From positions 5,753 to 69,752 of the forward strand of contig CALUXR010000008.1 of the NCBI GenBank assembly GCA_944324795.1: a stretch of 64,000 bases of DNA. Direction: 5' to 3'. Positions 23,874 to 62,985 of the stretch are shown piece by piece; the first letter of the stretch is position 1; the number at the start of each line of letters is the position of its first letter. The DNA comes from an uncultured Acholeplasmatales bacterium. Lineage in GTDB: Bacteria; Bacillota_I; Bacilli_A; Acholeplasmatales; Anaeroplasmataceae. Under the pieces are notes generated by a model. The model was not told where the DNA came from and made no database searches. It saw nothing but the letters and a program-made list of their open reading frames with translations. The position numbers were made by a program, and so were the translations under genes.

Positions 23874-24516
23874 AGATAATCATGTTATTGTTGTATATAA
23901 AGAAAGAGGAATATTAGCTCAAGCAGATGGTAGTGATAAATTAGATATTTTAAATATGACAAAATCTTATCTTAAAGAAAAATATCAAAAACCTGGTAAT
24001 GTCTATTTAGGTTTAGTACATCGTCTTGATATTAATACAGAAGGATTAATGGTTTTTGCTAAAACTTCTAAAGCAGCAAAAAGACTTAGTGAAGATATAA
24101 AATTACATAATTTTAATAAATTTTATCTTGCTTTAGTTGAAGGTAAAACTAGTAATGGAAGATTAGAAAATAAATTAATTAAGGATGAAAACAAAAAGAA
24201 ATCTTTTATTTCTAATGAAGGAAAAATAGCTAAATTAAGCTATAAAACATTAAAGAATATAAATATAAATAACACTTTATGCTCAATTGTTGATATTACT
24301 TTAGAAACAGGTAGATTTCATCAAATTAGATGTCAATTTGCTAATATTGGTCATCCTTTATATGGTGATATAAAATATGGTTCTAAAAATAATAATAGAT
24401 ATGCTAATTTACAAGCTTATAAATTAGAATTTATTCATCCAACAACAAAAGAATTGTTAAGTTTTAAAGTTATTGATTATAATGATTATTTTAAAGATTT
24501 AGAAGGGATTATATGA
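23857..24516 (+). CDS. RluA-family pseudouridine synthase (no S4 domain)
   Basis: HRLDINTEG catalytic motif and FHQIRCQ; 219 aa. Confidence 0.85.
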   Translation: MKIIYEDNHVIVVYKERGILAQADGSDKLDILNMTKSYLKEKYQKPGNVYLGLVHRLDINTEGLMVFAKTSKAAKRLSEDIKLHNFNKFYLALVEGKTSNGRLENKLIKDENKKKSFISNEGKIAKLSYKTLKNININNTLCSIVDITLETGRFHQIRCQFANIGHPLYGDIKYGSKNNNRYANLQAYKLEFIHPTTKELLSFKVIDYNDYFKDLEGII

Positions 24517-25466
24517 TTAAATTAAATATTTTAAATATAAATAGTTTAAAAATGCTTGCAGGAGCGAATAATATAAATATTAAAACAATAGAAGGTATTT
24601 ATGATATCGAAATTAATTTAAATGGTGATACTATTTATTTAATTAAAGGAGATGAAAAGTATTTACTTATTTTAAATATTTTGTTTAATAAATTATTAGA
24701 AGCGATTGATTTAGGTGCTAAAATAACACCACGTGATATTGTTTATTTAGCTAATTTAATAAAAAATAAAGAGGAAGATAAATTTATTAAATTATATCAA
24801 AATAAAAAAGCTATTGTTTATACTTATAATAATAAGCCAATATTTCCTAAAACTATTAAACAAATTGAATATATTGAACTATTAAATAAAAAAGATATTT
24901 TATTTAGTTTAGGGGCAGCTGGGACAGGTAAAACCTATATAGCAATAAGTTATGCTGTAAATTTGCTTAAAAATGGACATATTAATAAAATCATCTTAAC
25001 TAGACCTGCAGTTGAAGCAGGTGAATCTCTTGGTTTTTTACCTGGTGATTTAAAAGAAAAAGTTGATCCTTACTTAAGACCTTTATATGATGCCTTATAT
25101 GACACATTAGGTATTGAACAAACTGAAGATTTAATAGCTAAAAATATAATTGAAATTGCTCCATTAGCTTATATGCGTGGTAGAACACTTGAAAATGCCT
25201 TTATAATTTTAGATGAAGCACAAAACGCAACAATCGAACAAATAAAGATGTTTTTAACAAGACTTGGTTTTCATTCTAAAATGGTTATAACAGGAGACCC
25301 TACACAAATAGATTTAAGAAATCAAAATCAAAGTGGTCTTAGTTTTTCTGCTAATTTATTAAAAAATATTAATGAAATTGGTGTAATTTATTTTTCTAGT
25401 ATGGATGTAGTACGTCATCCTTTAGTTGGTAAAATAATTGAAGCTTATGCTAGTTCTAAAGTTTAG
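24513..25466 (+). CDS. phoH: PhoH-family ATPase
   Basis: GAAGTGKTY Walker A, ILDEAQN, ITGDPTQIDL; 317 aa. Confidence 0.9.
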   Translation: MIKLNILNINSLKMLAGANNINIKTIEGIYDIEINLNGDTIYLIKGDEKYLLILNILFNKLLEAIDLGAKITPRDIVYLANLIKNKEEDKFIKLYQNKKAIVYTYNNKPIFPKTIKQIEYIELLNKKDILFSLGAAGTGKTYIAISYAVNLLKNGHINKIILTRPAVEAGESLGFLPGDLKEKVDPYLRPLYDALYDTLGIEQTEDLIAKNIIEIAPLAYMRGRTLENAFIILDEAQNATIEQIKMFLTRLGFHSKMVITGDPTQIDLRNQNQSGLSFSANLLKNINEIGVIYFSSMDVVRHPLVGKIIEAYASSKV

Positions 25467-25517
25467 ATATATATGATATTATTAATTAAAATATAAAAAA
25501 AGGATTCATAAAGACTA

Positions 25518-25550
25518 AAATAACTATAGTTTTCTGTAGTTATTTTTTAT
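25518..25550 (+). terminator. rho-independent terminator after phoH
   Basis: 12-bp stem (one G-U), loop TTTT, T-run. Confidence 0.7.
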
Positions 25551-25628
25551 TTTTTTATATCATTTAATTACTAATTATGTTATAATGCACTTTGGTAAAA
25601 AATTAGAGAAAAGAATAGGAGAACGTTA

Positions 25629-27764
25629 ATGAGTGAAGTAAAACGTTTTGAGATGGAGTGGGCGGGACGTCCACTTAAAGTAGAAATAGGAGAAGTTGCT
25701 AAACAAGCTAATGGCGCCTGTTTAGTTACTTATGGGGAAAGTGTTGTTTTATCATGTGTTTGTTCAAATGATGAAGTTTCAACTCAAGATTTTTTCCCAT
25801 TAATGGTATTATACCAAGAAAAATTATATGCAGCAGGTAAGATTCCTGGTGGTTTCTTAAGAAGAGAAGGTAGACCTAGTGAACATGAAACATTAGTTTC
25901 ACGTTTAATTGATAGACCGATAAGACCATTATTTGCTGAAGGATTTAGAAATGAAGTACAAGTAGTAAATACTGTTTTATCTAGTGATCCAAATTGTTCA
26001 CCTGAAATGGCAGCGATGCTTGGCTCATCTATAGCTTTAATGATTTCTAGCGTTCCTTTTGAAGGACCTATTGCTGGTGTAGTTGTTGGAATGATCGATA
26101 ATAAATTTATTATTAATCCAACTCCTGAAGAATTAGAAAAAAGTGATTTAAATTTAACAGTTGCTGGTACACATGAAGCTATAAACATGGTTGAAGCTGG
26201 TGCTCGTTTTGTAGATGAAGACACAATGTGGGAAGCTTTAAAATATGGTCATGCTGAAATTAAAAAATTATGTGAATTTGAAGAACAAATAGCTAAAGAA
26301 TGTGCTAAAGAAAAAATTCAAGTTGAATTATTTTCTCTTGATCCAAATATTGATAAAGAAGTAAGAGCTTATGCGGAAGAAAATATGAAAAAGGCTATCC
26401 GTATTGAAGATAAATTAGAACGTTATGAAGCTATTGATAGAGTAGAAGAAGATGCTTGTAATCATTTTGATGAAAAAGTATTTATCACTGAAGTTGGTGG
26501 TATTAAAGTATTAGATAATGAAGCTAAAGCTTTATATTTAAAAAATGTAAAAATTAGTTTAGAAAATATTTTACATGAAGAAGTTCGTCATATGATAGCA
26601 GTTGAAAAGATTAGACCTGATGGTAGGGCACTTGACGAAATAAGACCATTATCTAGTAGAATTGATGTTTTACCAAGAACACATGGTAGTGCTTTATTTA
26701 CACGTGGTCAAACTCAATCACTTGGTACTGTAACACTTGGTAGTCTATCAGATAATCAAATAATTGATGGACTAGGTTTAGAAGATACTAAGCGTTTTAT
26801 GTTACATTACAATTTCCCTCAATTTTCAGTAGGTGAAACTGGCCGTTATGGTTCACCTGGTCGTAGAGAAATTGGTCATGGCGCTCTTGGTGAAAGAGCC
26901 TTATCATATGTAATTCCATCAGAAGATGAATTCCCATATACAATAAGAGTAGTATCAGAAATATTAGAATCAAATGGTTCATCAAGTCAAGCTACAATTT
27001 GTTCTGGTACCCTAGCTTTAATGGCAGCAGGTGTTCCGATTAAAGCTCCGGTTGCTGGTATTGCGATGGGTTTAATTATGCAAGATGAAGAAAATTATAC
27101 AATTTTAACTGATATTCAAGGTATGGAAGACCACCTTGGTGATATGGATTTTAAAGTTGCTGGTACAAGAGATGGTATAACTGCTTTACAAATGGATATT
27201 AAGATTAAAGGTATAACATATCAAATTTTAAAAGAAGCTTTAGCTCAAGCTAAAAAAGGTAGATTACAAATTTTAGATCATATGGCTACTACAATCGCTA
27301 AACCAAGAGAAGAATTATCTAAATATGCACCTAAAGTAGCAATGACAAGAATTAATCCAGATAAGATTAAAGATGTTATTGGTACAGGTGGCAAAATTAT
27401 TAATCAAATCATTGAACAATTTGATAATGTTAAAATTGATATTGAACAAGATGGTAGAGTATATGTAATGCATTCAGATATGAATACTTGTAAATCTTGT
27501 ATAGCATATATTGAAAATTTAGTTAAAGAAGCAAAAATTGGCGAAATATATGAAGGTAAAGTTACTCGTATTGAAAAATATGGTGTATTCATTGAATTAT
27601 GGGATGGTTGTGAAGGATTATGTCATATTTCAAAACTTTCAAAAGATAGAGTTGCAAAATGTGAAGACGTTGTTTCTTTAGGAGATATAATTTTAGTTAA
27701 ATGTATCGGGATTAATGAAAAAGGTCAAATTGACCTATCAAGAAAGGATGCAATAAATAATTAA
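25629..27764 (+). CDS. pnp: polyribonucleotide nucleotidyltransferase (PNPase)
   Basis: Two RNase PH domains, KH and S1 domains; 711 aa. Confidence 0.97.
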
Positions 27765-29602: not shown

Positions 29603-29605
29603 GAC

Positions 29606-29633
29606 TTGCAAAAAATAATAATTTTGCTAAAAT
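29606..29633 (+). promoter_or_regulatory. promoter of rnpB
   Basis: TTGCAA (29606-29611), 16 bp, TAAAAT (29628-29633). Confidence 0.55.
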
Positions 29634-29638
29634 TATAA

Positions 29639-29961
29639 GGCAATATGGTAATCGAGCAGAAATGTTAGGAAAGTCCATGCTAGCACAGTCTGCGATGACT
29701 GTAGTGTTTGTGCTTAAGGAAAAAATAACTTAAGGTACCTTTTGGTAACGGCGAATGAAATCTAAGTCGAAAGATATGATGTAGTTTATAATGTGCCACA
29801 GAAACGAGTTATAGGGAAACCTATAAATGAAACGCGGTAAACCCCTCAAGCTAGAAATCCAAATTTTGGTAGGAGAGCTTAAACTGACGAAATGAAGTTA
29901 AGTTTAGGTCACATATGTGAAGATAGATGATTACCCTTGACAGAACATGGCTTATATATTG
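29639..29961 (+). ncRNA. rnpB: RNase P RNA, type B (Bacillus-like)
   Basis: It has GGTAATCG...AGGAAAGTCCATGCTAGCAC...GTAGTGTTTGTGC near the 5' end and AGATAGATGATTACC...GACAGAACATGGCTTAT near the 3' end. P1 is CAATAT/ATATTG and P2 is GGTAATC/GATTACC. Ends are approximate. Confidence 0.9.
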
Positions 29962-29987
29962 CAGGAGACCTTCGGGTCTCTTTTTTT
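29962..29987 (+). terminator. rho-independent terminator of rnpB
   Basis: Stem GGAGACC/GGTCTC(T), loop TTCG, followed by TTTTTTT. Confidence 0.85.
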
Positions 29988-30284
29988 ACTGTTAAGCATA
30001 TTTAAATCATTTACATGTTGAAAAAAAGAAATTCAAAATTTATATTAAAACAACAAAGAATATTTTATACATCAAAATGTAAAATATATTATATTTTAAT
30101 TTTCGTATTATAAACGAAATATTATATAAAGCTATTCTTGACCTATTTGATTTATTTCTATATACTATTTAAATAAAATGTATTGTTTATATATTTTTAT
30201 TTATTTGGTGCTAAAACTAAAAACTTTTTTTGAAAGGAGAGATATCACACAAATTAAGCACTAAATAGAGATACACTAAGCAAT

Positions 30285-30869
30285 ATGAAATAACTATTTT
30301 ATTTATTATTAATTTTATTGTTGTTAGCATCGTGTAATAAAATTAAAACATCTGAAACTACAAAAATTCATTTTAAATATTTTTCTATAAATAGAGATTT
30401 AGATGAAGATATTAATATCAATAATATACCATATTTTCTTCATCAGCTATTGAAAGTATCTATAATGATGAATCTTATAGTATTACTTATGATAAAAATA
30501 ATGATTCTGATATTTATATAAAGTTATGATTTGATGACATTTTATATAATGAAAATGAAATTATTGATATAATCGATACACATAGTAAAGTTAAAGATGT
30601 TTATAAAACAACAATTAAAATTAAATATAATTTAGTAAATTATAATTGAGACTAATGTTGCACTTATTAGTTGTTCAGAATATTCACATACACAAGACAT
30701 CTATACTAAGGAAGTTGCTGATGTAAGTTTTACTTATTTTGAACATAATGAAATAGAAGTATCATATAATAAAAATTTATATTCTTTAGAAGATTCTTAT
30801 ACTAATAATATATTAAATATGGGAGATATTATTAAAATAAGTGAAGTATATAATCATTTAATTGATTAA
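30285..30869 (+). pseudogene. decayed lipoprotein gene (nonsense codon at codon 3, at least two frameshifts)
   Basis: It starts ATG AAA TAA, then LFYLLLILLLLASCNK, a signal peptide with an LLASC lipobox. Reading continues in two other frames (..SAIESIYNDESYSITYDKNNDSDIYIKL*FDD.., then ETNVALISCSEYSH...VYNHLID*). Confidence 0.55.
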
Positions 30870-31028
30870 TTTTATAAAATATGAAAAATTATTTAGACAC
30901 TCTGGTCTCTTTTAATTAAAGAAAAATAAAATAATTTTAAAAAATACTTGAAAGAAAACGTCTTATGTATTAAAATTGTAATGAAGAAGCGCTTTTTGTG
31001 GGAGTGTTTAATTGAAATAGGAGGAGAT

Positions 31029-45310: not shown

Positions 45311-46390
45311 ATGAAAGGTTTATATATTCATATTCCTTTTTGTAAGCATATTTGCTCATATTGTGATTTCCCTAAAAAAATAGCTTATAATGAAGAACAA
45401 ATTACTAATTATTTAAATAAATTAATAAAAGAAATAAATGGATTAAATACTAATTTATTTGATACAATATATATAGGTGGAGGTACTCCTAATAGTTTAA
45501 ATAATAATAATTTAGAATTATTATTAAAAACTATTAAAAATAAATTTAATAAATATAAAGAATATACAATTGAATGCAATCCTGAATTAATAAATAAAGA
45601 ACAAGTTTTATTATTTAAAAAATATGGTATTAATAGAGTTAGTTTAGGGGTTGAAACATTTAATGATAAGGGTTTAAAATTATTAAATCGTCATCATAGT
45701 GAAAAAGATGTTATTAATAGTGTCAAATTATTAAAAGAAAATGATATTAATAATATAAATATTGATTTAATATATGGCTATTTTAACGAAACTATAGAAG
45801 ATTTAAAATATGATTTAGAGATGATTCATAAATTAAATATTATGCATGTATCATGTTATACTTTAATTTTAGAAAAAAATACATTATTATATAAATTACA
45901 TCAAGAAAAAGAATTAAATGAAGATTTAATAGCGGATATGATGGATTATACTTATAAATATTTAGCTAAGATTGGTTTTAATCATTATGAGATATCTAAT
46001 TTTTCTAAAGTAGGATATGAATCATTACATAATTTAAAATATTGGAATAAAGAAGATTATATAGGACTTGGGATGGGTGCTACATCTTGCATTAATAATA
46101 AAAGAATTACTAATTCATATTTTATCAATAATTATTTAAAAGATATTGATAAGAGTGTTGAAATATTAGATTTAATTGATTTAAAAAAAGAATTTATAAT
46201 AATGGGATTAAGAAAAATAAAAGGAATTTTAAAAGAAGATTATTATAATAAATTTAATAGTAAGATTAATGATGATTTTAATTATAAGAAATTGATAGAT
46301 TTAAAATTATTAGAAGAAGATGATAAAAGTTTAAAATTGACTTATAGAGGTCTTTTTTTAGCAAATATTGTTTTTGAGGAATTTATATGA
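45311..46390 (+). CDS. hemW: radical SAM heme chaperone HemW (oxygen-independent coproporphyrinogen oxidase-like)
   Basis: LYIHIPFCKHICSYCDF; 359 aa. Confidence 0.88.
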   Translation: MKGLYIHIPFCKHICSYCDFPKKIAYNEEQITNYLNKLIKEINGLNTNLFDTIYIGGGTPNSLNNNNLELLLKTIKNKFNKYKEYTIECNPELINKEQVLLFKKYGINRVSLGVETFNDKGLKLLNRHHSEKDVINSVKLLKENDINNINIDLIYGYFNETIEDLKYDLEMIHKLNIMHVSCYTLILEKNTLLYKLHQEKELNEDLIADMMDYTYKYLAKIGFNHYEISNFSKVGYESLHNLKYWNKEDYIGLGMGATSCINNKRITNSYFINNYLKDIDKSVEILDLIDLKKEFIIMGLRKIKGILKEDYYNKFNSKINDDFNYKKLIDLKLLEEDDKSLKLTYRGLFLANIVFEEFI

Positions 46391-47325
46391 TTAAAAAAGA
46401 AAAAGAAATAATTTTTTATGAAATAACTGATTTTATATATTATTTAGAAGATGAAAAAAGATTAAGTAAAAATACAATTATTGCTTATAAAACTGATTTA
46501 TTAGAATATCAAGATTTTTTAGTTAAATATCAACATATTGATAATGTATGTGATATTGATAAAGATATGATATTAAAATATTTAGCTTCATTAAAAAGAG
46601 CTGAATTAGCTAAAAGAACTATTAATAGAAAGATTATTGCAATAAAGAATTTTCATAAATTTTTATATAATGAAAAAATATGTAAAAATGATGTTTCTTA
46701 TTATATTGATTTACCTAAATTAGATAGTAAATTACCAACTGTATTAAGTGAAGAGGAAATAAATAAAATGATAAATAGTATTGATACATCAGATATTATT
46801 GGTAAAAGAAATAGAGCTATGTTAGAATTATTATATAGTTCAGGACTTAGAATAAGTGAATTAATAGACTTAAAAATTGGTGATTTACATATGAATGAAA
46901 AATATTTAAATGTCATTGGAAAAGGTGATAAAGAAAGGATTATTCCAATTGGAGAAATGGCGATTGTAGCTTTACGTGATTATATTGAAAACGCTAGATC
47001 TAAGATTAGTAAAAAACCTGGTCAATGGTTATTTTATAATTATCAAGGAAATAAAATGTCAAGACAAGGATTTTTTAAATATTTAAAGAAATTAGCTCTA
47101 GATAATGGAATAACAAAAAACATTTCACCACATACTATAAGACATAGTTTTGCAACTCATTTATTAGCTAATGGGGCTGATTTAAGAATAGTTCAAGAAT
47201 TGCTAGGTCATGAAGATATTTCAACAACACAAATATATACACATATTGATAAATCACATTTAAAAGAAATGTATTTAAATACTCATCCATTAAAAAATAA
47301 AGGAGAAGATAAAAATGAAATATAA
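46387..47325 (+). CDS. xerD: site-specific tyrosine recombinase XerD/XerC type
   Basis: N-terminal SAM-like domain (LSKNTIIAYKTDL). The catalytic residues are RAMLELLYSSGLRISE...HTIRHSFATHLL...LGHEDISTTQIYTH. It sits directly upstream of deoB. The XerD versus XerC assignment is tentative. Confidence 0.8.
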   Translation: MIKKEKEIIFYEITDFIYYLEDEKRLSKNTIIAYKTDLLEYQDFLVKYQHIDNVCDIDKDMILKYLASLKRAELAKRTINRKIIAIKNFHKFLYNEKICKNDVSYYIDLPKLDSKLPTVLSEEEINKMINSIDTSDIIGKRNRAMLELLYSSGLRISELIDLKIGDLHMNEKYLNVIGKGDKERIIPIGEMAIVALRDYIENARSKISKKPGQWLFYNYQGNKMSRQGFFKYLKKLALDNGITKNISPHTIRHSFATHLLANGADLRIVQELLGHEDISTTQIYTHIDKSHLKEMYLNTHPLKNKGEDKNEI

Positions 47326-49681: not shown

Positions 49682-49816
49682 CAGATTGATTTCTGTTATT
49701 TTTTTTAAGCAAAATTAATAAATATTATTGAATGTGCAAGTTTCTATAAATTCATATTTAGTTTTATTTAAGAACAAGCCGCTTTATTAAAAATAATTTA
49801 GAAATATAAATCATTA

Positions 49817-50494
49817 ATGATTTATTTATATATAATTATAATAAATCCATATATCAAATATATATGTTTCATTATATTATTAATGGTTTCTTCAACGTTG
49901 GTGGCTTGTCAAAATGATAAAATTGAAATAGAATACTTCCCTTATATATTTGAAGATGAATATGGCAAAATTGTAACTAAATATGCTGTTAAAAGAATGT
50001 TTTATAGACCTGAGTATAAATATTTTGAAGATGTAAACCAAGAAATTGTCATTCCAGAAACTTATAATGATGTTGAAGTCACTTATTTATTGCCAAATTC
50101 AATAAATATTATTACTCATCGGCTTGATTTAAATAAAATTAAAGTTATTCAAAAAGAAGCCATTTCAACATTTAGTACTTTTTATGAATTAGATTTAGGT
50201 GAGGTTGAAATCATTGAAGAATATGGGATTTTGTATACACGATGTAAAACAATAACAATCCCTAAAAGTGTCAAATATATAGGAGATTATAATTTTTATT
50301 TTACAGGTTATATACAAGATGTGTTTTTTGAAGGAAATCCAGAATATATAGCACCAACTGTATTTAATTTTGAAAGAAATCAAAGCTCTTCTAAAAAAAT
50401 AACTATATACGGACCATCAGGAGGGACTGTAGAAGAATTTGCAAAGATAAATAATGAAAAATTTGAAGTATGGGATCCTGCTACAAATAAATAA
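49817..50494 (+). CDS. putative lipoprotein with BspA-type leucine-rich repeat; start uncertain
   Basis: It has an STLVAC lipobox and the LRR_5-like ITIPKSVKYIGDYNFYF. There is no clear RBS and the N-terminus is odd, so the gene may be 5'-degraded. Confidence 0.5.
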   Translation: MIYLYIIIINPYIKYICFIILLMVSSTLVACQNDKIEIEYFPYIFEDEYGKIVTKYAVKRMFYRPEYKYFEDVNQEIVIPETYNDVEVTYLLPNSINIITHRLDLNKIKVIQKEAISTFSTFYELDLGEVEIIEEYGILYTRCKTITIPKSVKYIGDYNFYFTGYIQDVFFEGNPEYIAPTVFNFERNQSSSKKITIYGPSGGTVEEFAKINNEKFEVWDPATNK

Positions 50495-50522
50495 TGTTTA
50501 TTATTATAAATAAATTTAAAGT

Positions 50523-50560
50523 AAAGGTATTAGAAGATAGCGTGAGTCTAATACCTTTTT
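50523..50560 (+). terminator. strong rho-independent terminator; last plus-strand signal before the terminus tract
   Basis: 12-bp perfect stem AAAGGTATTAGA/TCTAATACCTTT, 12-nt loop, T-run. Confidence 0.8.
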
Positions 50561-52125
50561 AATTTCATAAACATGAACTGACACTTAGACTGTTCATCAT
50601 ATATAAATAAAATAATCTAATTATTTCAAAATACGATAATTTTTCGATATCATTTAACATAATTATATAAGACGACAAATTCAAAATTAAAGGCTTGAGT
50701 AATTGAGATTTATTGATAGAAAATTTAATTTTTAAATATAGTGTAAAAATTGATTTACTAACAATCATAATAATTAAGTACGTTTATTCATTTATTTTGA
50801 TTTATAAATATTTATTTATATACTTAAATAAAGTTAAGCTCAACACATTAAAATATTTAATTCTAGCGTTATATGTTGTTTAAGGGATTTTAAAGTCTCA
50901 AAATGAATAAGTTCCTTTAAGAATGATATTTTATGCATTTGTACTTAAACAATTAAAATTAAGCTAATTTAAAGGCTTATAAGTAGACTTTAACAATAAA
51001 TTGGAAAATAACCATATATAAAGTTAGAAACATCATTAACATAAATTATATTACCATATTGAATTAAAGGAACAATTCACATATATCTATTCATTTTTTG
51101 TTGGTTCTTTATCTAAATTGATTTGATGTTCTAGCAGCTGGATAATTTATGGATTTAAAAAATAAAATTTTTAAACACTAACCAGTTATTAAAACTAAAT
51201 ATAATAAATATGTTAATTATTATTTGCTAATAAATTAATAGATATCTAATAATCAAAACTAGAAAAATATTTAAATTTAAAAGTTGTTAAAATCAGATAA
51301 AAATAAATTAAAAATAAGACAAATCGACATGTATAAATACCTTTATTTTGGATTCTCGATTTGTCTTTTTCATGATAGCATTTTTGACGAAAATAAAAAA
51401 ATTTCAAAAGGCAACTAGTTTTAATTACTATATTTAAAAATATTAATATTTATTATAAGCATTAATTAATATTAGATGACTGATGAAAAAAATTATGTAA
51501 AGCAAATATATAAAATAATTATATTTTATTGTATTATTCGATTTACATAAAAATAAAGTTAATTAAGAAAAATTTAATAGTTAATATAATAAATAACCAA
51601 TGAAAATTTAATTAGATGTAGAAGAATAAGTCGTTTAAAATATACAGTCGTCTAATATATAGATTTTCACTATAAAAGAAATTAAAAATTAGTAAATTAT
51701 TATATAAAAAATTAATTTAAAAATTAAACTTAGTAGGATTGCTAAAGATATAATTAAAAATATAAATCATTCTGAAAATTAAGAGAAGCTATTTAAACAT
51801 TAATAAATATTAGTTGATTAATGTTTCTAAACAATCAATTTAAAATATATAGATATAAAATTAATACAAATAGTAATTTATAAATAAATAGACTTTATAG
51901 CAAGTATTTAAAATATGAATGAAGAAGATTATTTTATTTTTTTAGAATAAAAATTTTAACAACGTGAGCTTAGAGTTTGGATGTAAAAATAATATTGTAA
52001 TATTTGCAGAAGATGATAATAATAATCAAAACGAATTCACTTGTTTTAGATAACGGCATATAAAATAATTTAAAAGTAAATAATAAATAGCTCATAAAAA
52101 TTGGAAGTGAGTAAAAAATGAAATG

Positions 52126-52306
52126 ATTTAATTAAAATGAAACATAAGTTAAAGAAATATTATAGTTCTTATAAAGTTAAAAATAGCTGATAATGCCTAA
52201 AGAACAAAATATAAAAATAAATGAAAGTAAAATTAAAAACAAAACTATTTAATTAAAATGAAACATAATTAAAAAAATATTATAGTTCTTATAAAGTTAA
52301 AAATAG
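52126..52306 (+). repeat. two ~60-bp direct repeats spaced 121 bp apart
   Basis: 52126-52186 and 52247-52306 share ATTTAATTAAAATGAAACATAA...ATATTATAGTTCTTATAAAGTTAAAAATAG. They differ by one indel and one substitution. Confidence 0.85.
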
Positions 52307-53002
52307 AAGAAAATTGTATGAAAATTAAGATATGAAAATAAATAAAAAAATTCGTAAAAGCATATGGTTTAGTAATAATTAGTAACATTAAAAATAGTGA
52401 AAACAATTATGAAAATATGTCAACCTAGTATAAATTAAAGTGAATTAAGATTAATGGGGATTATGAAAATGAGTAACTAAAACATCTAGAATAAGATCTT
52501 AAATAGCTATAATTAAATTGAATGATTTATAAAAATTAGGGTTTCGCCCGGTATTTTTATTATAAATCATGAACATAAAATTAGTTATTTTTTTAATGAT
52601 AAAATAATAATTTGTTAATAAAAATCTAAATAACTTTTTAGAATATTGATCTATATATTACAAACAATAGATTAAATAAGTAAAAACAGACCAATCATTA
52701 TGTATATATAAAAAAGAATAGTAATAATAAAATTTTCGCAGTCTATCTAGTTTTGATAACTAGATGCGATGCAATATTAAACTAGATTTGTTGCCAAATT
52801 TTATGTAAACATTTTTTGAATTATACAAAATTTTTAAAGACAAATAAAAATCGAATTTAGGGATTGGTAGGTAAATGATTTTTCGATTTGTCATTTTTTC
52901 GTTTTTTTAGGAAGTACAACAAAATTCGTTTTTTTGAGTATCGTAAAGAAATCCACATATCCACTTAATTTAAATTATATGATTATTCTTAACTAATTTA
53001 TT

Positions 53003-53030
53003 GGTTAACATAATATATATTATAGGAAGT
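53003..53030 (-). other. dif: dif chromosome-dimer resolution site (XerC/XerD target)
   Basis: The minus strand reads ACTTCCTATAA-TATATA-TTATGTTAACC, a 25/28 match to B. subtilis dif ACTTCCTAGAA-TATATA-TTATGTAAACT. It lies at the coding-strand polarity switch. Confidence 0.85.
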
Positions 53031-53330
53031 AAAATAGATAAACAAAAATCACTAAAATTGATATGAAAAGATGTTCGTTGATGGTGTTTAGTGGTAATTA
53101 TTGATTGCTTTTACTATTTCTTCTATTCTTAAACATACTCATTTGTATCTTGTTGAATATGTTTTTAGCTTATTTTTGTTGAAAAGAAGAAAACGAAAAG
53201 GCGAAACGTGATGATTTCCCCGTGTCGATTGCCTCATTTTGCCATTGAAAATATATTTTGCTATTAGTTTACACTTTGACTTTTATTTCTTCTTCTTCAT
53301 TTACCTTGACATATGTATTTCGCTACTTCG

Positions 53331-53361
53331 TAAAAAAAGACGAGTTTTTATTTCTCGTCTT
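53331..53361 (-). terminator. rho-independent terminator of the Fic-like gene
   Basis: Minus strand: AAGACGAG-(9 nt)-CTCGTCTT followed by a T-run. The stop codon lies in the loop. Confidence 0.75.
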
Positions 53362-54442
53362 CGTCATTATTCATTATTAAATCATATAAGCTCATTTGAC
53401 GACTTGAAGTTGGTTCAAATCTATCATAGTTTGATATCCGAACCCAAGTTGCACTACGACCTACACCATTTGGTCTAATTTTATTTTCATCGCGCATCCT
53501 CTTAAGTGTTCTATCGATTGTTGATTCTGATACATAAGGATGTTTAGCTCTAATTTCATCTTTAGTAAATACTTCTCCAAGTTTTAAAATTGTATTTTCA
53601 ATGTTAAATGTTTTCGCAATGTTTTTATCAAATTTAGTATCTGAAGCTAGTTTATCAACTTTTCTATATCCATTAATTAACACATCAATTATAAAATTAT
53701 TTAGTGGGGTTGTTTTAGCATAACCATCTACCCAATTAAAATTAGCCTTAGAAACTAGTGATTTAAATTCTTCATATTCTTCATAAATCATTTCAAAAAA
53801 TGAAACATAATGGAACATCTTAAACTGTTCTTTTAACAATAACAAATAGATAATTAGCAATCCAATTTCCCAATTTCCTTCTGTAAATGGAGCTATATTT
53901 AAAAAATCTATGTAAAAATTTATTACAATTTCTGTCAATTCATATTTGCCTGAATTTATTAATTTTATATATTTATTTAATAATTCCTCCATTTTTTTAC
54001 GCCTTGATTCATGCTTTTTCTCTTCTATTAGGTTAACTTTTACAACCACATTTTCTGTTACATAGGCAATTTGTTTCACTTCTTTAAATATTCTAATTCC
54101 AAGTCTTAAAAATTCATTGCTAGTTAATTCTAATTTATCTGATTCTTCTGCTACAATTTTAAAGACATTTTTAATATTTTTTAATATTTTTTCATCATTG
54201 TTTTTTGGATTTGAATCTTTTTTTATTAATAATTTAAATCTATTGTTAGTAATATTTAATTTCATTATTTTACCAAAATAGAAAGTATCACGTTCAACCG
54301 TTTGTTTAATTATTTGTGATAAACTACCTTTTAGAATATTTTCAAAATAGAAATCTTTCCCTTTATATTCGTATAATGTAAGTAATTTCATCATGGTTTC
54401 GTTTGTTATTTGTAAGCGATCCATGTTATTTAAACAATTCAT
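53348..54442 (-). CDS. Fic-fold protein with a degenerate active-site motif and C-terminal wHTH
   Basis: The architecture resembles ~370-aa Fic proteins. The position of HPFxDGNGRxxR reads APFTEGNWEIGL. The C-terminus is STIDRTLKRMRDENKIRPNGVGRSATWV (wHTH). GAGGTG RBS. Confidence 0.7.
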   Translation of the reverse strand: MNCLNNMDRLQITNETMMKLLTLYEYKGKDFYFENILKGSLSQIIKQTVERDTFYFGKIMKLNITNNRFKLLIKKDSNPKNNDEKILKNIKNVFKIVAEESDKLELTSNEFLRLGIRIFKEVKQIAYVTENVVVKVNLIEEKKHESRRKKMEELLNKYIKLINSGKYELTEIVINFYIDFLNIAPFTEGNWEIGLLIIYLLLLKEQFKMFHYVSFFEMIYEEYEEFKSLVSKANFNWVDGYAKTTPLNNFIIDVLINGYRKVDKLASDTKFDKNIAKTFNIENTILKLGEVFTKDEIRAKHPYVSESTIDRTLKRMRDENKIRPNGVGRSATWVRISNYDRFEPTSSRQMSLYDLIMNNDEDEK

Positions 54443-54460
54443 TTTCTCACCTCTATTACA

Positions 54461-54517
54461 ATTATAATAAAAGTTAATTTCTAAATCAATATAGTCATTT
54501 TTAAAAAATGACTATAT
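54461..54517 (-). promoter_or_regulatory. promoter of the Fic-like gene with an abutting 29-bp palindrome
   Basis: Minus strand: TTGATT (54484-89), 17 bp, TATAAT (54461-66). The perfect inverted repeat ATATAGTCATT-N7-AATGACTATAT spans 54489-54517 and touches the -35. Confidence 0.6.
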
Positions 54518-54529
54518 TTAGTTTTTAGT

Positions 54530-54567
54530 TATGAAAAAGAAAAAAACTTGACATTTTGTCAAGTTTA
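54530..54567 (-). terminator. rho-independent terminator of the kinase gene
   Basis: Minus strand: AAACTTGACA-AAA-TGTCAAGTTT followed by TTTTTCTTTTT. Confidence 0.8.
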
Positions 54568-56211
54568 ATTTTTATCATCTGTGTAAAATATTGAATCGCC
54601 AATGAATTCTCTTAAAATTGAATTGCATGGAACCCAACGATCTTGAATATCTTTAAAATATTTTAAGAACTTGATTAAACGGTTCGCAGCTATATAATGA
54701 GGACTAGTTGAAGGTATCTTTTCTAATAATGGTAAAGCATATTTTTTCATTACACAAAGTTCATATGTAAGCTCACTATTATATACATAATCTGCTTTTT
54801 CTTGATATGGATAAATCCATCTAAATTCTCCTCTTCTTACAGATGGCCAAATAGCTAATGTTTTTTCGCATTCATAATTTCTATAATTATGATCTCTTAC
54901 CATACGTCTTATTAATCTAATGTCTGAAATACTTATAGGATTTTGGTCGTCTATATGTAATTGAGCTTGTGGAGCTATATAAATACGATATTTTTGTTCT
55001 GACGGAATTGATGGAGTTAAATCATCATTTAAAGCATGAATTCCTTCAATCATTATTGGCTGATTTTTACCAAGTTTAACGGTTTTACCAATTTTACGAC
55101 TGCTAGTTTCAAAATCAAAATGTGGCAATGTTACTTCTTCTCCAGCGATTAAACGATACATATGTTCATTAAATAATTCGCGATCTAAAGCATCAATATG
55201 TTCTAAATCTGGTTTTCCTTCTGCGTCTTTAGGAGCTTTATCCATTCCTAAATAATAATCATCTATTGATATCATTAAAGGCTTAATTCCACGACTCATA
55301 AGCTCTATTTTAAGTCTATTTGTAAATGTGGTCTTACCACTTGATGATGGGCCTGCAATAGCGATTAATTTAATATCGTCAATGTTCTTTTTAATTGTTT
55401 CGCCAAGTTCAGCAAGCATATTGTTATGTCTTGTTTCACAAATGTTTATGAATTCTAAGGCTTTTTTATCTTCTATAATTTGGTTCATTTGAGAAATATA
55501 ACTAGCTTCTACGATATTCCCCCAATTATTAGCCTCTCTAAGTGCATGTGTGAAAACAGGAGCATCTTCAAATTTAGGAATTTTACCACCAGCTTCAGCA
55601 CGTGGGTATTGAATTAAGAAACCAGGTGAATAAAAACGTAATTTATAGTCTTTAATATAGCCTGTTGAAGGTAACATATAACCAAACATGTAGTTTTTGT
55701 AATCTTTACATTCATAAATATGAACAGTATCTTCGGGACGATATTTTAAGATTTTAACTTTATCTTGATATCCCTGTGTTGCGTAATAGGCTTCTGCTTC
55801 TTGTTTAGTTATAGTTTTTCTTTTAATTGGTAAATCAGATTCGATTAATTCTTCTAGAACTTGCTCAATCTTTTTTAAATCAACCATTGTAAATGCTCTA
55901 TTAATGTTAGAAATTGAAGCAAAAATCGACCTTGAAATGCTATAATTGTATATAATTCTAGCGTTTGGGAAAACTATTTTTGTAGCCATAGCAATTAAAT
56001 ATCTAAGTGTTGATTGATAAATCCTACAGGCATCAGAATCAGTCAAATCTAAGAATTCTACGCTAGCATCACTATCTAAAATGTAATCTAATTCGCGAAT
56101 TCTATTGTTAACTTTAGCTGCTTGGTAATGTCTATCATTTTTTTCTAATAATTCATGTAATCTTATTGGCTTAGTAAATTCTAAGCTTTTATCATTTAAT
56201 TTAATAATCAT
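54565..56211 (-). CDS. uridine/nucleoside-kinase-family P-loop kinase with an N-terminal TGS/ThrRS-like extension
   Basis: The N-terminus IKLNDKSLEF...AAKVNNRIRELDYILDSDASVEFLDL is TGS-like. The Walker A IAIAGPSSSGKTTF plus a uridine-kinase/PRK-like core occupy the C-terminal half. 548 aa. Confidence 0.7.
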   Translation of the reverse strand: MIIKLNDKSLEFTKPIRLHELLEKNDRHYQAAKVNNRIRELDYILDSDASVEFLDLTDSDACRIYQSTLRYLIAMATKIVFPNARIIYNYSISRSIFASISNINRAFTMVDLKKIEQVLEELIESDLPIKRKTITKQEAEAYYATQGYQDKVKILKYRPEDTVHIYECKDYKNYMFGYMLPSTGYIKDYKLRFYSPGFLIQYPRAEAGGKIPKFEDAPVFTHALREANNWGNIVEASYISQMNQIIEDKKALEFINICETRHNNMLAELGETIKKNIDDIKLIAIAGPSSSGKTTFTNRLKIELMSRGIKPLMISIDDYYLGMDKAPKDAEGKPDLEHIDALDRELFNEHMYRLIAGEEVTLPHFDFETSSRKIGKTVKLGKNQPIMIEGIHALNDDLTPSIPSEQKYRIYIAPQAQLHIDDQNPISISDIRLIRRMVRDHNYRNYECEKTLAIWPSVRRGEFRWIYPYQEKADYVYNSELTYELCVMKKYALPLLEKIPSTSPHYIAANRLIKFLKYFKDIQDRWVPCNSILREFIGDSIFYTDDKN

Positions 56212-56620
56212 TTATTTCATTCCTTTCATAGTTTTTAATATTATTAAAATTATTTTTAATAAGCATTATATATAATATTTAAAATTAATTAATCTAGTTT
56301 TAATAACTATATGTCTTTTGAATTTTTTTGATCCGTTTTCCCGTGCTTATATTTTATAATATTTAAATTAAAAAATAAAGATAATATATTTTGGAATAAA
56401 TCTTATTTTAATTATTAGATTTAGTAATGTTTAAATTAAATTTTTACATATTATTATTAGATAACATAATTATTAAAACTAAATATAAATTGAAATTTTT
56501 TGTTTTTTGGTATAATTTTTAAAACTAGATATAAAATATTAAGTATTCTATTTTTGTTGTTTCAAAATATATGTTCTAGTTTTTAAAACTATTTTTGTTA
56601 TAAAAAAAAGATTTGGCAAG

Positions 56621-57742
56621 CTAGTCACCAAATCTAATCTTATTATTATATAAATCCTCCATATAACGATATGTTTCTTCACCTAAATCTAAATAAACTT
56701 CTGCTCTACTACCTGCTTCATCAATTATTAAGGCTGGATTATATGCTTCTATGGAAGTTATATCTTCCCATTCAGAATCACTAAATATATCATCATAAAC
56801 AACTTGCAATGTTGGACAATAACCAACTGCTTCAGTATTTATATAACTATTTTCTGCATCTAAAATAAAATCAATGAATTTGTAGGCTAATTCAGTTTCC
56901 GCACTTGTAATTGGAATTACCATACCATCATAAAACACATTGTTAGCGTTAGTTGGAGCATAAATACTATAAGTTTCAGCATTTTCTGCTGTATCACCTT
57001 CTGTATCTGCATAATATGCATCGAAGAAATCACCTGAATAAACTAATGCTACATCGCAATTCCCGGCTGCAACATCAATTTTTAAATCATCTGTACCCCA
57101 TTTTTGAAAATTTCTACTACTTATTAATTCAGCACATTTAAGAAGCTCTTCTTCACTAGTTGTGTTTAAACTATAGCCTAAGTAAAGCTCCGCACAAGCA
57201 AATGCATCTCTTGATGAATCATACATACCAATTTTTGCACCTTCAGGCAAAACATCTTCATAAAACACAGCAAAGCCATATTCCTCAATTATTTCCCCTA
57301 TATTAGGAAAATTCTTCTTACTATACATTATACCAAGACTACCCCAAAAATAAGGAATATAGTAGCTTTTATAGTGTTTATTTTGATTATTTGACATAAG
57401 TGTATTTAATTCACTAACAAACATATCAGGCTCATAATTTTCTAATTTTGAATAATCAATTTCTTTAAGCAAATTATTCTTATAAAGTTTATCAATCATA
57501 TAATCTGAAGGTATAACAATATCATAAGGTACTCTCCTATTTAAAATATCATTATACATATTTTCATTACTAGATGTAGTAAGTTCAGTTACAATACAAT
57601 CGTTTTCTTCTTCAAAAGCAGTTATTAAATCATACGATAAATAGTCCTGCCAATTTAAAATAATCAATTCTTTATAATATGAACAACTACTTAAAATTAA
57701 TATTGATATTAACATATATAAAATACATACTATTTTCTTCAC
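56621..57742 (-). CDS. potD: spermidine/putrescine ABC transporter substrate-binding lipoprotein
   Basis: LSSC lipobox, SBP family 1 fold, last gene of the pot operon; 373 aa. Confidence 0.8.
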   Translation of the reverse strand: MKKIVCILYMLISILILSSCSYYKELIILNWQDYLSYDLITAFEEENDCIVTELTTSSNENMYNDILNRRVPYDIVIPSDYMIDKLYKNNLLKEIDYSKLENYEPDMFVSELNTLMSNNQNKHYKSYYIPYFWGSLGIMYSKKNFPNIGEIIEEYGFAVFYEDVLPEGAKIGMYDSSRDAFACAELYLGYSLNTTSEEELLKCAELISSRNFQKWGTDDLKIDVAAGNCDVALVYSGDFFDAYYADTEGDTAENAETYSIYAPTNANNVFYDGMVIPITSAETELAYKFIDFILDAENSYINTEAVGYCPTLQVVYDDIFSDSEWEDITSIEAYNPALIIDEAGSRAEVYLDLGEETYRYMEDLYNNKIRFGD

Positions 57743-62910: not shown

Positions 62911-62985
62911 TGGCAGAAGCAGTAGGATTCGAACCTACGTATGATGGGGTCAGAGCCCATTGCCTTACCGCTTGGCGATGCTTCC
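62911..62985 (-). tRNA. tRNA-Gln (anticodon CUG), CCA encoded
   Basis: The reverse complement is GGAAGCATCGCCAAGCGGTAAGGCAATGGGCTCTGACCCCATCATACGTAGGTTCGAATCCTACTGCTTCTGCCA. It forms a cloverleaf with anticodon loop CUCUGAC and closely resembles Bacillus tRNA-Gln apart from the anticodon. Confidence 0.9.

Follow-up and report, generated by a model that had tools for sequence, protein, structure and literature searches.

A gene-free tract beside dif in an uncultured Acholeplasmatales bacterium and an array of polar sites that looks like a terminus barrier

Two systems that trap replication forks at the terminus of a bacterial chromosome are known, Tus-Ter and RTP-Ter; they are mutually unrelated and confined to narrow clades (PMC10331603). 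The Ter sites of RTP-Ter are composite and form two opposed clusters, with one in the rtp promoter, and Tus-Ter is arranged similarly (PMC10331603). This report concerns a 41-bp composite motif, designated M1, that is repeated around the dif site of an uncultured Acholeplasmatales bacterium, in and beside a gene-free tract that lies within a 64,000-nt stretch of contig CALUXR010000008.1 (assembly GCA_944324795.1), termed here the window. The genome analysed is a 1.70 Mb assembly of 51 contigs, and coordinates are window positions unless a contig is named. The one-sided, dif-pointing layout of M1 looks like a terminus barrier of a type not described before.

The RTP-Ter sites of Bacillus subtilis are asymmetric composites, a dimer-binding inverted repeat with a weaker adjoining part, and M1, with its palindrome as the putative dimer site, is similarly built. 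The two also share several back-up copies on each side, opposed clusters around the terminus and dif, and the placement of one site in a terminus-adjacent gene's promoter region. Were the M1 palindrome to correspond to the strong B site of RTP-Ter, origin-derived forks would run into the weak arm before the palindrome and so travel in the permissive direction; this agreement is weak, being expected by chance half the time. M1 differs from RTP-Ter in its unrelated sequence, in the absence of an RTP homologue and in lying within ~4 kb of dif rather than across a large region. With Tus-Ter, M1 shares opposed polar sites that flank dif and a site in a terminus-adjacent promoter; it differs in that there is no Tus homologue, in that its core is palindromic whereas a Tus monomer binds a non-palindromic 23-bp site, and in scale, the M1 arrays extending over kilobases and Tus-Ter over hundreds of kilobases.

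Protein sites confined to the terminus are also known as matS, bound by MatP, in Escherichia coli and as the XerD-bound sites of B. subtilis at which SMC is unloaded. The matS sites are symmetric and spread over ~800 kb, and the B. subtilis sites resemble dif half-sites; M1, in contrast, is one-sided, clustered in a few kilobases and not dif-like. Repetitive extragenic palindromes (REP), and the bacterial interspersed mosaic elements (BIME) that they form, resemble M1 in having a palindromic core and in often lying directly past gene terminators, but they are dispersed genome-wide in many copies, whereas there are 3-5 copies of M1, all within 5.2 kb around dif, and none outside 51162-56502 in the genome. 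Finally, Xer-exploiting integrative elements (IMEX) of the CTXphi, TLCphi and gonococcal genetic island (GGI) type also place extra variable DNA beside dif. The tract has no duplicated or degenerate dif flank and no element genes or remnants, and its variable DNA does not abut dif.

Polar M1 sites around dif

Both GC skew and AT skew change sign at ~53000 and the genes of both sides converge there, which identifies this position as the replication terminus. The preliminary description of this DNA had placed a dif site in the tract, and this is confirmed. There is a single 28-bp site with the 11-6-11 layout of XerCD/dif, similar to the Firmicutes dif consensus and located at the skew switch, in a genome that encodes Xer recombinases. 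It is the only sequence in the genome to match all 22 arm positions (the runner-up matches 18 of 22), and of the 39 family genomes with a match to its core, 38 contain that core just once. XerD (TIGR02225, 363 bits) is encoded at 46387-47325, 5.7 kb from dif, and a 38% identical paralogue is encoded on contig C18. The positions of dif and of the M1 copies are as follows (ADH, Fe-alcohol dehydrogenase).

53003..53030, + strand: dif, GGTTAACATAATATATATTATAGGAAGT, 11-6-11 layout, 28 bp
51162..51202, + strand: M1, weak degenerate copy, 24 bits
51395..51435, + strand: M1, 38-40 bits, AAAAAAATTTCAAAAGGCAACTAGTTTTAATTACTATATTT, homologous to the ADH-proximal M1 of congeners
52727..52767, + strand: M1, innermost left copy, 34-40 bits, with the palindrome ATCTAGTTTTGATAACTAGAT at 52745-52765
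56290..56330, - strand: M1, right-hand copy, 32-38 bits, ~80 nt upstream of a TGS/uridine-kinase-like gene
56462..56502, - strand: M1, possible second right-hand copy, 14-18 bits here but strong at the same place in congeners

The motif has the form AAAAAnATTTCAAAA-N-ATCTAGTTTTnAAAACTAGAT, in which an A-rich arm, AAAAAnATTTC(A/G) (ATTTCAAAA), is followed by 8 nt and then by the 21-bp palindrome ATCTAGTTTTnAAAACTAGAT. When a leave-one-out position weight matrix (PWM), built from six congeners with this genome excluded, was applied with a cut-off of 18 bits, the thresholds being of our own choosing, only four sites in the 1.70 Mb reached at least 18 bits and all four lie in the window, at 51395 (+, 38 bits), 52727 (+, 34 bits), 56290 (-, 32 bits) and 51162 (+, 24 bits). 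The best match elsewhere in the genome scored 15 bits and shuffled sequences at most 13. Inclusion of the window's own copies in the matrix gave the same picture. In six of the seven genus members the innermost left M1 begins at -278 to -280 from dif, in the seventh at -257, and the M1 block at this position reappears directly past ADH in every congener.

Conservation of M1 extends throughout the family. The relatives compared are all metagenome-assembled genomes (MAGs), many of them fragmented, and 78 genomes were scanned with a 14-base M1 skeleton, allowing at most one mismatch and using the reversed pattern as control. Most genomes returned 2-13 matches, versus 0-2 with the control, and ~90% of the matches, as read from those listed, fall in one cluster of at most 8 kb per genome. 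Across 13 genera, 40 dif loci were examined; 133 of their M1 copies are oriented toward dif and 8 away from it, several of the latter being the same palindrome read in reverse. In the window, copies to the left of dif are on the + strand and those to the right on the - strand, so that all point toward dif. Two opposed groups of polar sites around the terminus, the arrangement that characterizes a fork trap, are thus formed by 133 of the 141 copies at these 40 loci. In other families of the order, M1 was absent from five of six dif loci, and the sixth (L024) has one copy, 3.5 kb from dif. Separately, at three dif loci of one such family (L022, L026 and L027 of family f2), the sequence AAGTTTAGTA(A/T)A is present as an inverted pair flanking dif, for example at -327/+422, -151/+237 and -868/+878. 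Sister families may own a different dif-flanking polar motif.

Terminators, called by a simple RNAfold-based rule of our own, are enriched on the same strand directly upstream of M1, with 31 of 108 copies having one in the -50 to -1 bin and ~5 per bin elsewhere. In the case of ADH, the T-run of the terminator typically stops 2-15 nt before the first M1. On the right-hand side this terminator-then-site arrangement is repeated at 56574-56598 and 56603-56637, where a variant of the palindrome, TTCTAGTTTTTAAAACTAT, directly follows the terminator hairpin of a solute-binding-protein gene.

The preliminary description had proposed, as one of three explanations, a terminus region with protein-binding sites, and comparative support for this is provided by the terminus-restricted, polar and family-conserved M1, together with the inverted repeat IR2 described below, as putative sites. 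Based on these patterns, M1 is probably a protein-binding site with a terminus-specific role.

Composition and growth of the gene-free tract

Between 50495 and 53347 the only frame of at least 60 aa in translation table 11 is a low-complexity, 67-aa open reading frame (ORF) on the minus strand (50565-50768). Across all 51 contigs this is the longest ORF-free gap, 2470 nt with the next longest 973 nt at a 60-aa threshold, and 2853 nt with the next longest 1345 nt at an 80-aa threshold. None of the other large gaps is as rich in AT; the GC content here is 0.19, versus a mean of 0.26 for the genome. The ORF-free, AT-rich character claimed for the tract is thereby borne out, whereas the accompanying statement that spacers elsewhere in the window are at most 450 bp does not hold, as under the same ORF rule gaps at 29.6-30.9 kb measure ~715-1345 nt and those at 62-63 kb ~800-1100 nt. 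The first of these stretches (29603-30948) ranks second in the window among those that lack an ORF of at least 80 aa, with ~1.3 kb, or 715 nt at the 60-aa threshold; the only tRNA gene in the window is at 62911-62985. An alternative genetic code was considered and rejected, as table 4 (TGA read as W) yields only implausible low-complexity frames and the flanking genes suit table 11. Six-frame translations of the tract with stops masked had no match in Pfam at E <=0.1, a blastn search (distant mode) against 50,697 phage records had none, and an Rfam scan of 49.5-54.5 kb had none at E <=1.

The surrounding layout is common to six congeneric genomes, in which ADH is followed by 1.3-1.9 kb of ORF-free DNA, then dif, then 337-346 bp, and then a gene for a Fido/Fic-fold protein, here designated Fido-wHTH, that points back at dif. 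In three of the six there is no frame of at least 45 aa in the entire interval. Alignment with these congeners indicates that the tract is made up of three parts, an insertion, hypervariable filler and an island around dif. The first two, the genes to their left and the boundaries are as follows.

Left of the tract: a HemN-like gene, xerD, a phosphopentomutase-type metalloenzyme gene, ADH and an LRR_5 lipoprotein ORF
49682..51388, no strand: lineage-specific insertion, ~1.7 kb, from the ADH stop codon to the first strong M1, absent from six congeners
49817..50494, + strand: BspA-type leucine-rich repeat (LRR_5) lipoprotein ORF, 225 aa, within the insertion; the true left edge of the ORF-free tract
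50523..50560, + strand: intrinsic-terminator hairpin with T-run, folding energy (dG) -12.1, z-score (z) -3.3
50751..50846, + strand: 5'-truncated copy of a ~150-nt dispersed repeat
51436..52726, no strand: hypervariable AT-rich filler, unalignable with any congener
53331..53361, - strand: terminator of the Fido-wHTH gene, dG -10.6, z -2.4

The two inward-pointing terminators reported to bound the tract both fold, as listed; a simple terminator scanner missed them because their loops exceed 8 nt. In the congeners, the homologue of 51389-51571 begins 20-90 nt past the ADH stop codon. What has been inserted here includes the LRR_5 ORF, its terminator and the dispersed-repeat fragment, and lineage-specific acquisition is limited to this leftmost 1.7 kb. 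The dispersed repeat is present in 8-10 copies in the genome, and congeners G004 and G008 carry copies that are 90-97% identical; it matches no Rfam family. Copies such as that at 33715-33863 of contig C14 contain an internal AAAACGTCCT...AGGACGTTT hairpin, and are often at contig ends and directly past a terminator hairpin. An origin of this repeat from a group II intron was rejected, as the RF00029 match close to one of the copies falls outside the repeat and is itself single-copy. This match (contig C14, 33361-33432; 44.3 bits, above the gathering score) corresponds to group II intron domain V/VI, and there is no intron ORF in the 900 nt examined beside it.

Within the filler there is a tandem duplication with a 120-nt period (52096-52194 and 52216-52314), so that the duplicated unit reported for the tract is present. 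The 60-bp duplicated unit, which had been likened to split dif arms, an idea that was considered and set aside, sits in the non-conserved filler. By contrast, the dif island, ~650 bp (~52726-53347), aligns with congeners at 67-78% identity and is nearly free of indels. The difference is most readily seen in the closest pair of species, L010 and L014, which have ADH proteins that are 91% identical and 4-fold sites that are 76% identical. Their islands (-316 to +345) are 74-93% identical with one gap column, whereas the central 650 nt of their spacers are 39-59% identical, which shows the spacer to have been replaced rather than mutated. A lack of conservation in relatives, named at the outset as a result that would weaken the idea of a dedicated function, is thus found for the filler, but not for the position of the tract, the M1 sites or the dif island.

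The distance from ADH to dif is bimodal in the 31 family loci, being less than 600 nt in 13 and more than 1300 nt in 18. The short loci carry one M1 each, with one exception that has none, and the long loci carry 2-4. Left-hand M1 copy number and ADH-dif distance are correlated with a Spearman coefficient of 0.83 (n=31), calculated ignoring phylogeny. In L034 and L035 the right side is expanded as well, with gaps of ~2 kb on each side and M1 on the - strand there. L048 (contig C1 of genome G083) has three tandem M1 units of ~350-500 nt between -2823 and -1475 from dif, which are 94-96% identical and represent a recent amplification of the terminus array. Two M1 units in L015 are 84% identical over 176 nt, and in older arrays the similarity between units is limited to the ~40-50 nt of M1. 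As copy number tracks spacer length and fresh duplicates are present in L048, the tract appears to grow as M1 units are amplified and the spacers between them subsequently decay. It is therefore very probable that M1 units of ~350-600 nt have been duplicated in tandem, with M1 retained and the remainder decayed or replaced, and that the 1.7-kb insertion has been added here. This account explains why the tract is ORF-free, AT-rich and unconserved without assigning any function to the filler.

The dif island and the Fido-wHTH gene

The remaining features are located mostly in the island and to its right.

51316..51372, + strand: hairpin H1, AAGACAAATCGA...TCGATTTGTCTT with T-run, dG -15.9, z -3.2, ending 23 nt before the M1 at 51395
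52780..52810, + strand: a third half-site, AACTAGAT (52780-52787), and the conserved TTATGTAAAC (52801-52810)
52837..52907, + strand: hairpin H2, with the stem words of H1 and then a T-run, dG -12.4, z -0.6
52952..52964, + strand: tandem TCCAC-N3-TCCAC(A), DnaA-box-like, family-wide at 40-55 nt left of dif
53133..53162, no strand: inverted repeat IR2, ACATAnTCAT-N10-TGAnTATGT, at +126 from dif
53348..54442, - strand: Fido-wHTH, a Fido/Fic-fold protein with a C-terminal winged helix, 364 aa
54489..54517, no strand: second IR2 copy, ATATAGTCATT-N7-AATGACTATAT, directly adjacent to the -35 box in the promoter of Fido-wHTH

Both isolated dif half-site look-alikes that had been pointed out, TTATGTAAAC at 52801 and TTAGGAAGT at 52908, are present; TTATGTAAAC, which resembles the XerD arm, is kept in six of the seven genus members and TTAGGAAGT is not conserved. 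There is no second dif-like site in the tract, where the best candidate matches 15 of 22 arm positions, which is background, and dif arms are not enriched, with 12 sites that match at 14 or more positions versus 9 +/- 3 in shuffles. The TCCAC pair is not a DnaA-box cluster in this genome, each box having two mismatches to TTATCCACA, although in L011 the pair is perfect TTATCCACA. The real cluster is on contig C2, where 24000-25700 contains 10 perfect TTATCCACA boxes on both strands and is likely the oriC of this genome. A small protein encoded right of dif (the ATGAGTATGTTTAAG.. frame) was also rejected, as a 1-nt indel breaks the frame in L011 and the conserved feature at this location is IR2, which is non-coding.

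The two related terminator-like hairpins noted previously are present, with an AAATCGA..TCGATTT stem and 42 nt each (51321-51362 and 52848-52889). H1 is a paralogue of H2, and the right arm of H2 is at -123/-124 from dif in five of the seven genus members. In this genus, the innermost M1 belongs to a unit of ~175 nt and conserved length, designated U, that ends in H2, and a full second copy of U is located past ADH in L010 and L014 (nhmmer E 8e-8). As candidates for a structured RNA the hairpins did not stand up; RNAalifold gave no consensus structure and H2 is no more stable than shuffled sequences.

In eight genera IR2 is located at +124 to +126 from dif, and this genus, L016, L025 and L034 also have it at the Fido-wHTH promoter. 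The Fido-wHTH gene is syntenic with dif in 13 genera and in three of six loci from other families, and its homologues come from MAGs of uncultured Acholeplasmatales from the gut. The closest relative of solved structure is PDB 8uqu (E 4e-16), for which we found no literature; the Pfam Fic model gives 19 bits, below its cut-off, and APFTEGNWEIGL is read at the position expected for the Fic motif. As IR2 is present both beside dif and at the Fido-wHTH promoter, binding of Fido-wHTH beside dif is proposed as the simplest reading, and, given this placement of its putative sites, the protein probably binds IR2 both at its own promoter, in autoregulation, and 125 bp from dif. It is IR2, not M1, that is present at this promoter, and the gene is preceded by the TGS/uridine-kinase-like gene, which has M1 ~80 nt upstream. 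To the right there is a pot-type ABC transporter.

Interpretation of the M1 arrays

Conservation of both halves of the palindrome, its one-sided extension, the same sense of the copies on each side and the opposition of the arrays at dif all suggest polar protein-DNA complexes. A sequence-specific protein could occupy each M1, with a dimer on the palindrome and an additional contact on the arm making the complex polar. The opposed arrays would then be one-way barriers, such that replication forks, or another DNA translocase, could enter but not leave a zone of ~3.6 kb that contains dif, the Fido-wHTH gene and the kinase-like gene. Transcription would be kept off the complexes by the gene terminators that stand immediately before M1. 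DNA beside such barriers would be a bad site for genes and prone to rearrangement, and, as we propose, this instability would explain why the filler is gene-free and has a fast turnover. That the tract is the left arm of a family-conserved terminus module, in which the polar arrays would form a fork-trap-like terminus barrier, is from these patterns plausible, if tentative. That forks are in fact arrested at the arrays is a more doubtful step, to be regarded as possible by analogy with the known traps.

Several observations weigh against a fork barrier. The best score for an RTP homologue (PF02334) in the genome is 13.9 bits with a cut-off of 26.7, and a search for a Tus homologue (PF05472) in the genome gave no match. 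Known fork traps span tens to hundreds of kilobases, and the M1 arrays extend only ~+/-4 kb. M1 orientation parallels the direction of genes and of replication, a polarity that a local promoter or operator would share. The right-hand M1 is positioned like an operator relative to the start of the kinase-like gene, and the innermost M1 lies within the hairpin-ended unit U, which, with its second copy in two congeners, would suit a small transcription unit. The correlation of copy number with spacer length takes no account of phylogeny, and the functions suggested for M1, IR2 and the TCCAC boxes are derived only from comparative patterns.

With RTP and Tus homologues absent, any M1 binder would be new. 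Should there be such a binder, the M1 arrays could constitute a third fork trap, evolved independently of Tus-Ter and RTP-Ter, an outcome that we consider possible although we would not expect it. This trap would be compact, its barriers 0.3-3.5 kb from dif, and would extend to an entire family of uncultured Acholeplasmatales from the gut. A catalytically dead Fic-fold/winged-helix protein, bound to IR2 beside dif, would be part of the same terminus machinery, and the hypervariable gene-free DNA would be a trace of the instability that stalled forks bring about.

The observations on unit U and on the right-hand M1 would fit if a local regulator used M1 as its operator or as an activator site, each copy heading a short non-coding RNA (ncRNA) unit and one controlling the kinase-like/Fido pair. 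The tract would then consist of arrayed, unannotated ncRNA genes together with decayed duplicates of them, a form of the unannotated non-coding transcripts that the preliminary description had suggested. The hairpin and T-run of U follow ~85 nt past M1 with a spacing that is free of indels in six of seven species, the full-length U paralogue past ADH in L010 and L014 is of the kind expected, there are -10-like boxes between the right-hand M1 and the kinase-like start codon, and confinement of sites to a few kilobases is typical of local regulators. However, in 109 aligned copies there is no -10 box at a fixed distance past M1, the information content falling to zero immediately past the palindrome, and M1 itself does not fit a sigma-70 promoter; M1 as a promoter was accordingly rejected. 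A same-strand terminator is present between the innermost M1 and dif in only 10 of 32 loci. Furthermore, the body of U is poorly conserved and without a consensus fold, the z of H2 is unremarkable, Rfam offers no match, and it is M1 that survives duplication and not the putative RNA body. With observations on both sides, a local regulator with an ncRNA array is considered unlikely.

Restriction to the terminus, polarity and conservation of M1 would also be accounted for if M1 and IR2 were sites for terminus proteins with a role other than in replication, in unloading or blocking of SMC loop extruders, in positioning or regulation of XerCD/FtsK at dif, or in anchoring of the terminus for segregation, with Fido-wHTH as one of the binders. 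The fixed position of IR2 relative to dif and its presence at the Fido-wHTH promoter, the synteny of that gene with dif and the proximity of xerD are all in agreement with this, and there are precedents in the terminus-specific XerD sites that unload SMC in B. subtilis and in matS/MatP of E. coli. M1 is, however, unlike the arms of dif, known terminus organizers use symmetric sites over large domains and not tight one-sided arrays, and position is the sole link of M1 to SMC, FtsK or Xer. The probability that we attach to such an organizing role is likewise low.

Alternatively, the tract might have no dedicated function, being DNA that is tolerated where the genes of the two replichores end and that has taken up insertions and a locally amplifying palindrome, selfish or neutral, comparable to REP or to miniature inverted-repeat transposable elements (MITE), with dif and the flanking terminators as the only functional parts. 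Filler that is non-homologous even between close species, the 1.7-kb insertion with its dispersed-repeat fragment, the continuing tandem duplication in L048, and the 13 of 31 family loci that manage with less than 600 nt and at most one M1 would all be expected. Yet the sequence, orientation and position of M1 have been kept across 13 genera amid DNA that is saturated with change, M1 is absent from the remaining 1.7 Mb, unlike dispersed selfish repeats, and the dif island is indel-free and more conserved than 4-fold sites. Absence of function is thus distinctly unlikely, both for the tract and for everything in it other than dif and the terminators.

A decayed IMEX or prophage integrated at dif, the remaining explanation in the preliminary description, is very improbable; the tract does adjoin dif, its variable DNA differs among relatives and there are dif-arm look-alikes at 52801 and 52908, but the tract has no second dif-like site or excess of arms over shuffles, no Pfam remnant in six frames and no match to phage records, its variable DNA is separated from dif by more than 280 bp of conserved island, and no genus of the family lacks this ORF-free architecture.

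Whether bacteria other than those with Tus-Ter or RTP-Ter restrict termination is an open question (PMC10331603). Polar sites that are locked on dif throughout a family with small, AT-rich, Mollicutes-related genomes provide a concrete handle on this question, offering a defined 41-bp site, a defined layout and candidate proteins encoded nearby. They also suggest why, in evolutionary terms, a compact genome has its largest non-coding gap here, where sites have been amplified, the DNA between them is free to decay and genes are disfavoured. Should the sites turn out to act as operators or as promoters of ncRNAs, a terminus-restricted regulon linked to dif and to a Fic pseudoenzyme would still be defined.

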